From Gammaproteobacteria bacterium (GTDB lineage: Bacteria; Pseudomonadota; Gammaproteobacteria; Steroidobacterales; UBA11654): 39,813 bases of DNA. A program made the position numbers and the translations under genes. This document shows, one piece after another, positions 6,370 to 24,268 of this stretch. Each line of letters begins with the position of its first letter. Position 1 is the first letter of the stretch. The notes beneath the pieces are model-generated. The model was not told the DNA's origin. It saw only the letters and a program-made list of their open reading frames with translations, and made no database searches. The stretch spans positions 23,883 to 63,695 of the forward strand of contig DTSX01000112.1 in NCBI GenBank assembly GCA_012965065.1, in the 5' to 3' direction.

Positions 6370-7860
6370 TTACTTCTCCCTCATCTGTGGGAAGAACAAC
6401 ACGTCCCTAATTGATGGGCTATCCGTTAAAAACATCACCAATCTGTCAATACCAACACCTAGTCCTGCTGTAGGTGGCAATCCATACTCAAGTGCTTGGA
6501 TGTAGTCCTCATCGTAAACCATAGCTTCTTCATCGCCACTTTCCCTCTGTTGTACCTGTAAGTTAAAACGCTCGGCTTGTTCGTCTGGATCGTTTAATTC
6601 CTGAAAACCATTGGCTAATTCCCGGCCAGCAACAAAGAATTCAAAACGGTCCACAAGCCAAGGATCTTCATCGTTTCCTCGCGACAAGGGAGAAACTTCC
6701 TTCGGATAGTCTGTGATAAATGTTGGTTGGGCAAGATTGCCTTCAACTGTTTTTTCAAAGATTTCCAACAACAATTTCCCCGAGCCCTGACCCTGCTTGA
6801 CCTCAATACCAAGATCGGCACATACTTTGGTTAAATAATCCTTATCTCTCAGTAAATCGACATCTAGATTTGGGTTGTGAGCTAGAACTGAATCCTCCAA
6901 TGTCACCCTTTGGAAAGGTTTTGATACATCGTAGTCGTTGCCTTGATAACGAACGGTATCGCTTCCCTTGATCTCCAAGGCAATTTGAAAAATCATGTCT
7001 TCCAGCAAGTCCATAATATCCTCGGCGGAACAATATGCCATGTACAGTTCAAGCATCGTAAATTCAGGATTGTGTTGGGTTGAAACACCTTCATTTCTAA
7101 AACATCGGTTGATTTCAAAAATTCGGTCAAAACCCCCAACGACGAGTCGTTTCAAATACAATTCCGGTGCAATTCTGAGGTAAAAATCTCTGTCCAGGGC
7201 ATTGTGATGCGTGACAAATGGCCTCGCCACCGCTCCACCAGGAATGGGATGCATCATCGGTGTCTCCACCTCAAGGATTTTTCGATCGCTTAAATAATTT
7301 CTCATTTTGGAAATAATTTTCGATCGGGTCTTAAAAACATCCTGACTATCCTGGGACATAATTAAGTCAAGGTATCGCTGGCGGTACCTTATTTCTGTAT
7401 CGGTTAGACCATGGTATTTCTCAGGCAAGGGTCTCAAGGACTTGGTTAGCAGTTCCAACTCCATCACATTAATGGTCAGTTCGTCGGTTTTTGTTTTAAA
7501 CAAAGGTCCTTTGACCCAGATAATATCTCCGACATCCAGGGTTTTAAATTGATCGTAGGTCTCCGGGGATAATTTCGAAGAACTTAAGAATATCTGGATC
7601 TCGCCTGTACCGTCTTTTATTTTAGAGAAGCTGGATTTTCCCATGACCCTTTTGGCCATCATCCGGCCAGCAACCATGATTTCTTTATTTCTTGATTGCA
7701 GGTCTTCTCCGGTAAGAGAGGCAAATTGTTCCTGCAGATCCTGGGCATAAGCATCGATCTCCAGTCCTCTTGGGTAGTTAAAACCACCTTCCCTCAGGGA
7801 CTCCAGTTTTTTTCTCCTTTCTAGAATTAGTTTGTTTTGATCGTTGGTATTGTCAGTCAT
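6370..7860 (-). CDS. lysS: Lysine--tRNA ligase (class II)
   Basis: RYRQRYLDL, YLRIAPELYLKRLVVGG, FRNEG and GLPPTAGLGVGIDRL. Start set at ATG 7860 (MTDNTN), just downstream of prfB. Confidence 0.97.
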   Translation of the reverse strand: MTDNTNDQNKLILERRKKLESLREGGFNYPRGLEIDAYAQDLQEQFASLTGEDLQSRNKEIMVAGRMMAKRVMGKSSFSKIKDGTGEIQIFLSSSKLSPETYDQFKTLDVGDIIWVKGPLFKTKTDELTINVMELELLTKSLRPLPEKYHGLTDTEIRYRQRYLDLIMSQDSQDVFKTRSKIISKMRNYLSDRKILEVETPMMHPIPGGAVARPFVTHHNALDRDFYLRIAPELYLKRLVVGGFDRIFEINRCFRNEGVSTQHNPEFTMLELYMAYCSAEDIMDLLEDMIFQIALEIKGSDTVRYQGNDYDVSKPFQRVTLEDSVLAHNPNLDVDLLRDKDYLTKVCADLGIEVKQGQGSGKLLLEIFEKTVEGNLAQPTFITDYPKEVSPLSRGNDEDPWLVDRFEFFVAGRELANGFQELNDPDEQAERFNLQVQQRESGDEEAMVYDEDYIQALEYGLPPTAGLGVGIDRLVMFLTDSPSIRDVLFFPQMREK

Positions 7861-7879
7861 GGTGAATCCAAAATATTTT

Positions 7880-8975
7880 CTACAAACCTTGTTTGAGACT
7901 GGCTTCAAGAAATTTATTGATATCTCCGTTCAGTATAGCTTCTGGATTGCTGGATTCAATTTGGGTTCTTAAATCTTTAACCCGAGATTGATCAAGAACG
8001 TAAGACCGTATTTGACTGCCCCAGCCTATGTCTGCTTTGGTTTCCTCTAAGGCTTGAGCTTGTTCTTGTCTCTTTTGTTTTTCCAATTCAAACAACCGGG
8101 CTCGTATTTGTTTCATTGCAGTGGCCTTGTTCTTGTGTTGAGACCGGTCGTTCTGGCATTGAACAACCGTTCCCGTTGGCAAGTGGGTGATTCGAACTGC
8201 AGATTCTGTGGTGTTAACGTGTTGACCACCAGCGCCACTGGCACGATAAACATCAATACGCAGATCTGATGGATCAATCTCAACGTCAAAATCATCTTCA
8301 ATTTCAGGTGAGACAAATACTGCGGCAAATGAAGTATGCCTTCGGTTCCCAGAATCAAATGGTGATTTTCTGACCAATCTATGCACGCCGGTTTCCGTTC
8401 TCAGCCAACCGTAAGCAAATTCTCCCGCTACATGGATGGTTGCACTTTTGATTCCTGCCACTTCCCCAGGAGAGATTTCTATTAATTCAGCTGAGAAATT
8501 ATTGGACTCGCACCATTTCATATACATTCTCAGCAACATATTCGCCCAATCTTGAGCCTCAGTCCCCCCGGAACCGGCTTGGACATCGAGGAAGGAATTC
8601 GAAGTATCCATTTCATGTCTGAACATTCGTTGGATTTCCAATTGGCTGATCTCAGCATCAAATGCTTTGACATCGTTTGTCAAATCATTCAGTGTTTTTT
8701 GATCGTCCTCACTGATTGCGAGTTCCAACAGTATCGAGGCGTCCTCCAAATTACTTGAGAACGTTTCAAGTGTAGAAAGGGTTTTTTCGAGCCTCGCCCG
8801 CTCTTGATTGAGATTGCGTGTCAGTTCCCTGTTCTCCCATATATCAGGGTCGTTAAGGGTCTCCAGTATCTCATTTAGGCGTTCTGACTTTTTGTCAAAG
8901 TCAAAGGTACCCCCTAAGGGCGTTGAAGCGTTCCTTTAATTCATCAATCGCTAATTTAATCTGTGTTTCATCCAC
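7880..8975 (-). CDS. prfB: Peptide chain release factor 2 with programmed +1 frameshift (about 364 aa)
   Basis: GTG at 8975 with AGAGGA RBS (8983-8988). 24 codons end ...ALRGYL, followed by TGA at 8901-8903; the +1 frame continues DFDKKSERL into the 7880..8749 ORF, which carries the SPF and GGQ motifs. Confidence 0.97.
8900..8915 (-). promoter_or_regulatory. RF2 autoregulatory +1 frameshift signal
   Basis: Minus strand reads AGGGGG TAC CTT TGA C: an internal SD-like sequence followed by the CTT-TGA-C slippery site. Confidence 0.95.
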
Positions 8976-8994
8976 CCCAAAATCCTCTGTCTTT

Positions 8995-9666
8995 CTAATC
9001 TATTATGTCAAACTTTGCCCGCAAATCTTTGAACTGCTCAATATAATCCTCTCGCTTTCCATAAAATACCTGAGGCCCATGTTTTTCTACAGCAATTGCG
9101 ATTACAACTTGAGATACAGGCATTTGAGTTCTTTCTTCAAACATGACTGCGTATGCAGCCGACTGCATGAAGTAAGCATCAATCCAATCCACTCTCTTGG
9201 GTTTAGAACTGGTTTTAAAATCAATGACAGATAAAACACCGTCCCACTCCGCTACCAAATCGACGGTTCCACCCACTCTGAGTGCGTTGCTGTACAGAGG
9301 GGCTTCAATGGCTTTGACTGTGCCCACGTGTTTGTCTAATTCTTCTGCCAATTGATTAAACATTTCTCCAATGAGTGGCATTTCTTCCTCGAAGAGGCTG
9401 CTTTGTGAAACCAATTCATTCCGAAGGTACAATTCTGCCAGTTTGTGAACTTTAGTACCTCGGGTGGTAGCCGCCTTGGTTATTTTATTTGCCGCTTCCT
9501 CCCCCACTCTCAGGCGCCAAGCTTGAATGGCTTCCCTAGAGAGAAGTCCAGTAATGGTCGTTACGGAAGGGTAGCGATCGCCTTCAGGTGTTTCATAAAA
9601 CCGTTTGCTATTGCCAGTAACGGTCTTAAGCTGAAAGAGCTCAACTAATTCGTGTTTGAATTTCAT
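8995..9666 (-). CDS. PD-(D/E)XK superfamily exonuclease, phage/MGME1-like
   Basis: Motifs YPSVTTI, RGTKVH..E, E-x-x-L, GTVD...IDFKTS and QSAAY (RecB-like QxxxY). It has no cysteines. Confidence 0.85.
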   Translation of the reverse strand: MKFKHELVELFQLKTVTGNSKRFYETPEGDRYPSVTTITGLLSREAIQAWRLRVGEEAANKITKAATTRGTKVHKLAELYLRNELVSQSSLFEEEMPLIGEMFNQLAEELDKHVGTVKAIEAPLYSNALRVGGTVDLVAEWDGVLSVIDFKTSSKPKRVDWIDAYFMQSAAYAVMFEERTQMPVSQVVIAIAVEKHGPQVFYGKREDYIEQFKDLRAKFDIID

Positions 9667-9736
9667 TACTTACTGATTTGTTTAATCATGAATTATAATC
9701 AATCGGGAGAATACGTAATCATAAATGATTTTTTAA

Positions 9737-10093
9737 ATGAAAGAGACATATAACTCACTTATAGAATCAGTTGGTAGTGGAAAAATTCAATACCAGGGCA
9801 AGTGGTATGAAGAGAGTTTAATCATAGGTATTGATAAGATTATTTACCCATGGAAACACCCTGGTGTTGCAGATTTGGAAGTGAGTGATTTTGAGTCAGC
9901 TTTTGAAGGCAACACCGAAGTTATATTGCTAGGGACAGGAAGGAAACAAGTCTTTCCAGACACACACCTCGTCACCAAGATCCTGAAAAGAGGAGTTGGC
10001 ATTGAAGTGATGGATTCGAAAAGTGCCTGTCGAACATTCAATCTGCTTGTGTCTGAATATCGCCGACCATTGGCTATGTTGATGTTGGAGTAG
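9737..10093 (+). CDS. Mth938-like (DUF498) domain protein
   Basis: EVILLGTG, GIEVMDSKSACRTFNLLVSE motifs and 118-aa size typical of the Mth938/NDUFAF3 family. Confidence 0.9.
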   Translation: MKETYNSLIESVGSGKIQYQGKWYEESLIIGIDKIIYPWKHPGVADLEVSDFESAFEGNTEVILLGTGRKQVFPDTHLVTKILKRGVGIEVMDSKSACRTFNLLVSEYRRPLAMLMLE

Positions 10094-23497: not shown

Positions 23498-24268
23498 TCA
23501 GCGGATGATCCCTCTTGTGGATGCTTGTAAAAAATCAAGCATTACTTGCAATTCATTTGAAACTTCGTCAAGACCAGAGATTTTTTCCAGGGCTTCTTCC
23601 AAACGAAGATCAGAAGTATACAACAGCTTGTAAGCGGTCTTAATATTTCGTATTTGTTCAGCGGTAAAATTTCTTCTTCTTAAACCCTCAATGTTAATTC
23701 CTCTAGGCATAGCAGGTTGTCCCACAACAATTACATAAGGGGGTAGGTCTTTGGCCACACCTGCGTATATTCCCAAAAAACTGTGGCTACCGATTTTGCA
23801 AAATTGATGAGCGCCCGAAAAACCGCCAAATATTGCGTAATCCCCAACCTCTACATGGCCACCCAGGGTTGCATTATTGGCAAATATAGTGTTGTTGCCT
23901 ATTTGACAGTCATGCGCTATGTGAACATAGGCCATGATCCAGTTGTCATTGCCTAGCCGAGTGATCCCTGTATCTTGAATCGTTCCTCTATTTATGGTGC
24001 AGCATTCTCTAATGGTATTGCGATCACCTATCTCTAATTGAGTATCTTCATCGTTGTATTTCATGTCCTGGGGACTATCACCTATTGAAGAGAATGGGTA
24101 GATGTGGTTCTGTTTACCTATTTTCGTTCGACCAGTAATCACCACATGCGATTCAATAATCGTGGCACTATCAATGGAGACATCTGGGCCAATAATTGAG
24201 TAGGGTCCGATGCTTACATCATCAGAAATATCAGCTTGTTCAGAAACAATCGCGGTTTTATGAATCAT
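23498..24268 (-). CDS. lpxA: UDP-N-acetylglucosamine O-acyltransferase
   Basis: Hexapeptide repeats, PQDMKY and HIAHDC. Confidence 0.97.

Follow-up and report, generated by a model that had tools for sequence, protein, structure and literature searches.

A gene in a 39,813-nucleotide stretch of DNA from a marine gammaproteobacterium of the order Steroidobacterales (assembly GCA_012965065.1, contig DTSX01000112.1, forward-strand positions 23,883 to 63,695; the whole stretch is referred to here as the window) encodes a 223-residue PD-(D/E)XK nuclease of the MGME1 family, and occupies the position at which related bacteria carry recJ. The gene lies on the minus strand at 8995..9666 and is defined by its open reading frame and translation, by profile matches and predicted fold, and by its ratio of nonsynonymous to synonymous substitution (dN/dS). 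We regard a real in situ gene displacement by a domesticated phage nuclease as well supported, and put at roughly 60% the probability that the enzyme also substitutes functionally for RecJ, a prediction built on sequence comparison. An initial annotation had already read the gene as a domesticated phage nuclease in the recJ slot, and had named beforehand three kinds of observation that would speak against this: an intact recJ elsewhere in the genome, closest homologues that are vertically inherited cellular genes, and patchy presence among close strains. None of these was encountered, and the overall reading is supported.

Enterobacteria carry the gene order recJ-prfB-lysS, in which RecJ is a DHH-family 5'-3' single-stranded DNA (ssDNA) exonuclease. 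We examined this locus in 41 genomes, comprising the window genome (1.31 Mb in 131 contigs, 88% complete), 19 relatives from the same family (together, the host family, which is marine and has genomes of about 1.1-1.6 Mb), and 21 genomes that each represent a different further family of the order; G and L numbers below denote genomes and loci. The nuclease is present in 20/20 host-family genomes, across two genera and at 58-85% identity, and recJ (TIGR00644) was found in none of the 20, the window genome and all 19 relatives alike; a DHH domain was found in 0/5 of the host-family genomes searched for one. In the other 21 families the pattern is reversed, with recJ in 19 and the nuclease in a single one (30% identity). 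All 11 host-family loci that were fetched (L002-L012) have the nuclease followed by prfB, and then by lysS wherever the locus reaches; a divergent gene for a DUF498 protein precedes the nuclease in ten, and the eleventh (L003) ends short of it.

The DUF498 gene is a conserved upstream marker of the recJ slot across the whole order. Among 17 recJ loci from 17 other families it adjoins recJ in every case, and the order recJ-prfB-lysS is seen in 15 (16/16 and 14/16 if L016, from the unpublished genome G035, is set aside); a DedA-like gene and surE often lie past DUF498 in these outgroup loci, as they do in the window. The ancestral layout is surE-dedA-DUF498<- ->(orf)-recJ-prfB-lysS, and the nuclease stands exactly at the place of recJ. 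Because the outgroup families keep recJ between DUF498 and prfB-lysS, the nuclease is a physical replacement of recJ at its own locus, and the slot that had been proposed by analogy with enterobacteria is borne out within the order itself. The 70-nt and 19-nt spacers on either side of the nuclease gene show no trace of recJ. Many genomes of the order have a further gene of about 335-390 codons between DUF498 and recJ (L013, L015, L016, L165, L168, L176, L183); its product is without a Pfam match, and the gene is missing from the host family, as recJ is.

The nuclease open reading frame runs from an ATG through 223 codons to a TAG stop at 8997-8995, and its translation contains YPSVTT, RGTKVH, GTVD, IDFKTS and QSAAY and zero cysteines, so that the protein is without an Fe-S cluster; the length, motifs, lack of cysteine and 19-bp gap to prfB given in the initial annotation all hold, the minus strand having gone unstated there. 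Over its whole length the protein matches PHROG 298 ('exonuclease'; E 6.3e-72, 243 bits, residues 7-222 against profile positions 41-259 of 293) and Pfam PDDEXK_1 at E 2.9e-9. A profile of 40 homologues recovers human MGME1 (chains 8xa9, 5zyu, 5zyt and 5zyv) with E-values of 1.2e-19 to 8.4e-18 over query residues 30-194, with the next PDB sequence at E 0.12, and the motifs PSVT, W..R, G..H...E, E, G.vD, iD.KT and Q..aY are aligned between the nuclease profile and MGME1. The AlphaFold2 model has a predicted local distance difference test (pLDDT) score of 95 and a predicted TM-score (pTM) of 0.91, and in a Foldseek search of the PDB its ranks 1-9 are all human MGME1 (E 6.6e-12 to 6.4e-11, TM 0.62-0.68, about 204 columns); later matches, to AdnAB, a Cas4-family protein, 3L0A, Dna2 and RecE, come only beyond a gap of six orders of magnitude (E 3e-5 to 3e-3). 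The resemblance to MGME1 had been pointed out in the initial annotation, with a structure prediction proposed as a check, and both the profile (E ~1e-19) and the fold, through its nine best PDB matches, bear it out.

In the 40-sequence alignment residues H74, E78, E121, D136, D149, K151 and Q168 do not vary and Y172 is found in at least 90% of the members, and these eight are the predicted active-site residues; for MGME1, the available text of PMC3597694 names a D, D, K triad as catalytic. Profile similarity, catalytic signature, fold and the lack of Fe-S cysteines all agree with the broad MGME1 or Ddk1-like family. Membership of the opisthokont MGME1 orthologues does not follow, as the gene is on a bacterial chromosome and its product is 41-53% identical to phage proteins versus 22-24% to MGME1; the nuclease is a member of the wider MGME1 family, not an MGME1 orthologue. 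The JGI pipeline names many of these metagenomic homologues 'genome maintenance exonuclease 1'. No DHH-family domain was matched in the protein, which bears on membership of the RecJ family and not on function. Among NCBIfam models nothing was matched but Cas4 (TIGR00372), at 35.3 bits against a curated cut-off of 65. An identity as a defence system was considered and rejected, since PADLOC gave weak Cas4 and DruK superfamily matches alone (best E 2.6e-9) and there are no adjacent defence partners.

The family to which the nuclease belongs is large, with 4611 representative proteins at E <= 1e-3, of which 591 reach E <= 1e-30. Homologues are found in 999 phage records (tblastn), all at less than 60% identity, the best being that of Kyanoviridae phage C48C1 at 47%. 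Their holders include T4-like cyanophages, Sinorhizobium phiM-type phages, the Methylophilales phage Melnitz, enterobacterial Ackermannviridae, jumbo phages and a Pelagibacter phage, whose hosts range over cyanobacteria, alpha-, beta- and gammaproteobacteria and others; IMG/VR contributes 65 loci with identities up to 53% over near-full length. The nuclease aligns to its phage homologues from residue 1-3 to about 220. Genome contigs were scanned for homologues with a 12-sequence alignment as query, and an unrooted tree was built by a quick IQ-TREE run, with SH-aLRT support only, on 92 rows drawn from 145 extracted sequences after four loci containing recJ only, four fragments and one frameshifted copy (from G015) had been dropped and the remainder thinned at 93% identity.

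In this tree the 11 host-family rows form a single clade (SH-aLRT 100), with an inner split that follows the two genera, inside a group (support 94) of IMG/VR contigs and two contigs from metagenome-assembled genomes (MAGs). The closest relatives outside the host family, at about 50% identity, are IMG/VR and MAG contigs with T4-like phage neighbours. Phage genes are present in all seven nearest-neighbour contexts that were examined (L017, L078, L124, L108, L119, L075, L052): five have a PhoH gene nearby, four encode endolysin-like proteins, three a gp59-like helicase loader and two a gp32-like single-stranded DNA-binding protein, and a prohead protease and a DNA ligase are also seen. The phage origin that had been suggested for the nuclease is thus sustained, with the host family as one clade amid sequences in phage contexts and with nearest relatives that are not vertically inherited cellular genes. 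The most economical account is that the gene passed once, from a T4-like marine phage to the ancestor of the host family; because the tree is unrooted, the direction of this transfer is argued from breadth, one bacterial family standing against hundreds of phages with many different hosts.

The opposite direction, in which an old cellular gene of the bacterial lineage was picked up by phages, is very improbable. Phages do take host genes, the composition of the nuclease gene is like that of host genes, and an unrooted tree would accommodate such a history, but the gene occurs in just one of the 21 other families (at 30% identity), the ancestral occupant of the locus is recJ, and the 999 phage records span diverse hosts, with the host family as one well-supported clade within them. 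Moreover, the 'cellular' matches that were examined are phage contigs or integrated elements, SAR86 excepted. The scan of genome contigs gave matches in MAGs of many phyla; among these we looked at L099, L100, L108, L119, L124, L130, L135 and L144 as candidate domestications, and rejected them as phage contigs, integrated elements or phage-like; L099 and L100 cluster with phage C48C1 and are phage contigs binned into MAGs.

Several of the other homologues deserve mention in their own right. The MAG that provides one host-family locus (L098) has a second, phage-type copy at 42-45% identity on a 106-kb contig (L114, PBDY01000027.1; also G011:C28), which groups with sequences like that of Kyanoviridae phage C48C1; the contig may have been binned wrongly, or may belong to a T4-like phage that infects this host. 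Nitrosopumilaceae chromosomes hold homologues at 32-42% identity (L130, L135, L138, L139), with two copies on one chromosome; L130 and L135, the two loci examined, adjoin primase genes, and L130 also has a DNA methyltransferase gene nearby. These homologues are probably integrated viral elements. In Salmonella phage Maynard (L155) the homologue lies between a gene for a UvsY-like mediator and a DNA helicase gene, a position that fits a recombination role in phages and is the sole such context seen. In marine T4-like phages the homologue is usually beside phoH, outside any obvious recombination module, and this neighbourhood says nothing on function.

Within the host family the nuclease is a constrained, vertically inherited host gene. 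The dN/dS comparison that had been proposed at the outset gives NG86 values of 0.034-0.13 with a median of 0.045 (21 unsaturated pairs of 153, from 18 distinct family sequences), or about 0.05, which reflects strong purifying selection; together with presence at the same locus in 20/20 family genomes this favours domestication over patchy carriage. The window neighbours of the nuclease are housekeeping genes (sdh, ygfZ, lysS, prfB, DUF498, a VTT/DedA-like gene, surE, ftsB, eno, kdsA and pyrG), and there is neither a phage gene nor an integrase among them. There is no tRNA gene in the window, and no direct repeats flank the nuclease gene, where just two short imperfect inverted repeats are seen. 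The G+C content of the gene (0.44) is that of prfB (0.44) and close to that of lysS (0.43). As signs of a prophage or of mobile cargo, then, neighbours, att repeats, a tRNA target, patchiness and deviant composition are all negative, and the neighbour, repeat and tRNA checks uphold the initial statement that integrase, phage neighbours and att repeats are lacking.

These data also contradict the view of the gene as a functionless and decaying passenger (a moron) or remnant of a recent prophage, to which we give almost no credence. A full-length match to a phage family is what such a remnant would show, but the gene is at the same locus in 20/20 genomes of two genera at 58-85% identity, its dN/dS is about 0.05, and phage neighbours, integrase, tRNA and att-like direct repeats are all missing. 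The one copy that seems broken, in G015 (L126), was considered as a pseudogene and as part of a co-decay of the repair pathway and rejected in both respects: it has three frameshifts, yet residues are conserved in every segment. Over the same 40 kb of G015, nine of 28 compared window genes are frame-split, including sdhA, sdhB, ygfZ, eno and bamA. In this genome, which is assembled in long contigs, recO and xseA are split too (L126, L157, L158). Because essential genes nearby are also split, the G015 frameshifts are assembly indel errors. Such errors are pervasive in this genome, and its apparent pseudogenes are untrustworthy.

The nuclease gene is tightly packed against prfB. In the window the spacer from its stop codon to the prfB GTG is 19 nt (8976..8994, minus strand), with the ribosome-binding site AGAGGA at 8988-8983 and no terminator found by a terminator scan; across 14 family loci the two genes either lie 2-20 nt apart or show no separate prfB start after the nuclease stop. 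The prfB gene (release factor 2; 7880..8975, minus strand) starts at GTG 8975-8973 and has a programmed +1 frameshift site at codon 25, composed of AGGGGG at 8915-8910, 3 nt, and CTT TGA C at 8906-8900; the downstream frame matches TIGR00020 at E 5.9e-136. It is followed by lysS (lysine--tRNA ligase; 6370..7908, minus strand; NF001756, E 3.9e-211), listed with a TTG start at 7908; the true start is probably an internal ATG near 7860, because the family match begins only at residue 25. On the other side, the 70-nt divergent intergenic region (9667..9736) separates the nuclease from the 118-codon DUF498 gene (9737..10093, plus strand; PF04430, E 3.5e-25), past which, away from the nuclease, lie the VTT/DedA-like gene, surE, ftsB, eno, kdsA and pyrG.

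A TATAAT box at 9697-9692 on the minus strand sits within this intergenic region, 25 nt upstream of the nuclease ATG, and a similar box (TATAAT, TATAGT or TATATT) is kept about 25 nt upstream in most of 14 aligned host-family loci. In a simple promoter and terminator scan the minus strand had no complete sigma-70 match, and no signal exceeded what shuffled sequence would give; the box is for that reason a putative promoter. LexA control was considered and rejected: with one mismatch allowed, CTGT-N8-ACAG has 7 matches in the window versus 11 expected, and none is near the nuclease gene. Four RNA libraries, each from a different study, have contigs that match parts of the nuclease gene at 90-100% identity, and one contig (8913-9471) bridges the nuclease-prfB junction, which hints at expression and at co-transcription with prfB. 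These runs are assembled contigs that carry no strand, end or level information, and the parts that they leave uncovered are meaningless; the end of one of them (X5) at 9693 was accordingly rejected as a transcription start, contig ends being uninformative.

A second case of recJ loss accompanied by such a nuclease is found in SAR86, in which recJ was found in none of 41 sampled genomes and recO in 39, and a subclade accounting for nine of the 41 has a distant homologue of the nuclease. The nine copies and L143, which comes from a second SAR86 genome, lie among conserved chromosomal genes and have 50-76% mutual identity, in the layouts BCCT transporter-nuclease-carboxylesterase or TPR-nuclease-peptidase S51 (L142, L143 and L159-L164; G041, G042, G044, G048, G052, G056, G060, G076). 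They constitute a separate clade of the tree near Pelagibacter phage HTVC027P, and look like a second, independent domestication. At L143 the prfB open reading frame matches model positions 14-353 in one frame and is seemingly frameshift-free, unlike the prfB of the window.

Recombination repair in bacteria normally includes RecJ, which trims the 5' strand for the RecO/RecR route of RecA loading. Searches of five host-family genomes (G000, G001, G003, G005, G009) recovered recA, recR, xseA (encoding ExoVII) and the 5' nuclease domain of Pol I, in full-length polA frames, in all five, lexA in four, and recF in two, both in the second genus; mutS was found in 0/5, and this loss of mismatch repair may matter for the rate of evolution of the host family. 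The recO gene is present in the window genome and in 16 of its 19 relatives, true recQ was found in none of the 20, and no RecB scored above cut-off in the host-family genomes searched, in which just UvrD/Rep-like frames of about 720 codons were seen. Because no RecBCD-type enzyme was found, RecA loading would have to go via RecO and RecR.

We propose that the common ancestor of the host family acquired a nuclease gene from a T4-like marine phage, which took the place of recJ at its own locus while the surrounding surE-dedA-DUF498<- ->[recJ]-prfB-lysS block was kept. Since then the gene has been inherited vertically, tightly packed against prfB and under strong purifying selection. The product would be a metal-dependent PD-(D/E)XK enzyme that loads on free ssDNA ends and degrades them as MGME1 does, and it may supply the 5'-end ssDNA trimming for RecA loading by RecO and RecR, perhaps with a UvrD/Rep-type helicase as its partner. 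A mechanism of the MGME1 kind is likely because the motif set and the fold are the same; MGME1 is described in the available text of PMC3597694 as metal-dependent, needing free DNA ends and strongly preferring ssDNA. The substrate, polarity and pathway suggested here for the nuclease are drawn by analogy.

A number of points weigh against a role as RecJ substitute or against steps that lead to it. The host-family genomes are MAGs or single-amplified genomes of 59-95% completeness, so that each single absence is soft and the case for recJ loss is carried by 20 concordant genomes together with an occupied locus; the tree, as noted, is unrooted and made by a quick method; and the RNA libraries may contain DNA, which makes the evidence from them weak. 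In the literature searched we found no biochemical study of any phage member of the family. A RecJ-like 5'-3' polarity is not assured, because MGME1 is reported as active from either end in the accessible part of 10.1101/2024.01.15.575787, and as mainly 3'-5' in one study, going by the accessible part of PMC3597694. ExoVII, with xseA in 5/5 genomes, could alone cover 5' ssDNA degradation. Finally, 32 of the 41 SAR86 genomes have neither recJ nor the nuclease, and since most sampled SAR86 genomes keep recO with neither enzyme, substitution for RecJ is not obligatory; two other families of the order (represented by G028 and G040) likewise have neither detected. The slot in G040 (L182, G040:C1:779500-786700) contains a gene for a helix-turn-helix plus IrrE/Peptidase_M78-like protein and a 173-aa unknown open reading frame, and in G028 (L183) a conserved orf333-like gene abuts prfB.

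Several of these points would also be expected of a domesticated phage nuclease with a host role unrelated to RecJ, such as flap or primer processing at replication, as MGME1 does in mitochondria, breakdown of foreign or damaged DNA for nucleotide or phosphorus recycling, or phage defence, whose position in the recJ slot is the by-product of one insertion-deletion event that destroyed recJ. The loss of recJ needs no compensation in SAR86, G028 and G040, the slot of G040 has been overwritten by unrelated genes so that the site seems prone to remodelling, and ExoVII is retained; marine T4-like phages have the homologue beside phoH with no obvious recombination module, and the accessible text of PMC3597694 documents MGME1 in the processing of replication ends and 7S DNA. 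We nevertheless hold such a role to be unlikely, if a serious contender. The Pol I 5' nuclease domain is intact in 5/5 genomes, so that there is no obvious gap for a flap or primer nuclease to fill; a defence function has in its favour only the weak Cas4/DruK similarity (best E 2.6e-9), with no adjacent partners, and sits poorly with family-wide fixation at one locus and a dN/dS of about 0.05, typical defence genes being patchy; and every true chromosomal copy found, in two of two lineages, belongs to a lineage in which the search for recJ gave nothing. The reading that we favour is functional substitution for RecJ, at the probability given above.

Already known are the protein family, the connection with MGME1 and how common the family is among phages. 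As far as our searches reach, what is new is that a bacterial copy, chromosomal, family-wide and under selection, has overwritten recJ at its own locus, and that SAR86 provides a parallel: no report of recJ displacement by such a nuclease was found in the Woeseiaceae or SAR86 literature, subscription papers and supplements lying outside the search, and the accessible text of 10.1101/842617 makes no mention of it. More tentatively, and with slightly less than even odds in our estimation, streamlined free-living marine bacteria may have repeated a recruitment proposed for mitochondria, in that a phage MGME1-type nuclease took both the locus and the job of recJ, and did so independently in SAR86, such nucleases being general interchangeable substitutes for RecJ.

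If the functional reading is true, a 223-aa enzyme has replaced one of about 570 aa in a RecO/RecR pathway of RecA loading that operates without RecJ, RecQ or RecBCD. The case is in any event a well-documented physical overwriting of the RecJ gene by an unrelated phage enzyme, kept under strong selection through the history of a family, and it makes a relative of MGME1, a human mitochondrial disease gene, available in bacteria in tractable form. It shows the minimal repair toolkit of abundant small-genome ocean bacteria, with recA, recO, recR, ExoVII and the nuclease, and with no recJ, recQ, RecB-type enzyme or mutS found. It also supplies a functional hypothesis for the very common uncharacterised phage gene PHROG 298 (999 phage records), and supports the idea that cells recruit phage enzymes of DNA metabolism as core genes, as has been argued for mitochondria.

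The nuclease belongs to the same PD-(D/E)XK subfamily as human MGME1 (Ddk1/C20orf72; PDB 5ZYT, 5ZYU, 5ZYV, 5ZYW, 8XA9), with 22-24% identity and a TM of about 0.67, and has the H/E helix, E, D, D-x-K and Q...Y motifs without Fe-S cysteines; MGME1, in contrast, is opisthokont, nucleus-encoded and mitochondrial with N-terminal extensions, whereas the nuclease is bacterial and chromosomal, on a phage branch, and at the recJ-prfB-lysS locus. The available text of Szczesny et al. (2013, PMC3597694) groups Ddk1/MGME1-like proteins with phage and archaeal exonucleases. Closer still are the PHROG 298 phage exonucleases, of about 220 aa and with the same motifs (examples being Kyanoviridae C48C1, Prochlorococcus P-HM1 'T4-LIKE GC 325', Sinorhizobium phiM19 gp197, Melnitz, and Maynard gp72), the marine and rhizobial phage proteins having 41-47% identity to the nuclease; these are encoded in phage genomes, typically beside homologues of phoH, gp33, gp59 and gp32, and not on a chromosome between DUF498 and prfB. 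With RecJ (TIGR00644) the nuclease shares position and orientation, as in 15/17 outgroup loci, and a proposed class of substrate, free ssDNA ends, but RecJ is a DHH/DHHA1 protein of about 570 aa and the 223-aa nuclease is unrelated to it in fold and chemistry. Cas4, AddB/RecB-type nucleases, RecE and lambda exonuclease are of the same PD-(D/E)XK superfamily, as reflected in the weak TIGR00372 and fold matches. The nuclease has no cysteines for an Fe-S cluster, which sets it apart from the nuclease domains of Cas4, AddB and Dna2, and it has no CRISPR array or cas1/cas2 nearby, no fused helicase and no adjacent annealase.

In situ non-orthologous gene displacement in conserved operons is a known concept in comparative genomics, and phage-derived proteins such as POLRMT, POLG and Twinkle serve mitochondrial replication. 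That a phage enzyme became a housekeeping gene has been proposed for mitochondrial MGME1 as well, in the accessible text of PMC3597694. The host-family case differs from this mitochondrial recruitment in that it concerns a free-living bacterium, with recJ as the gene that was displaced.

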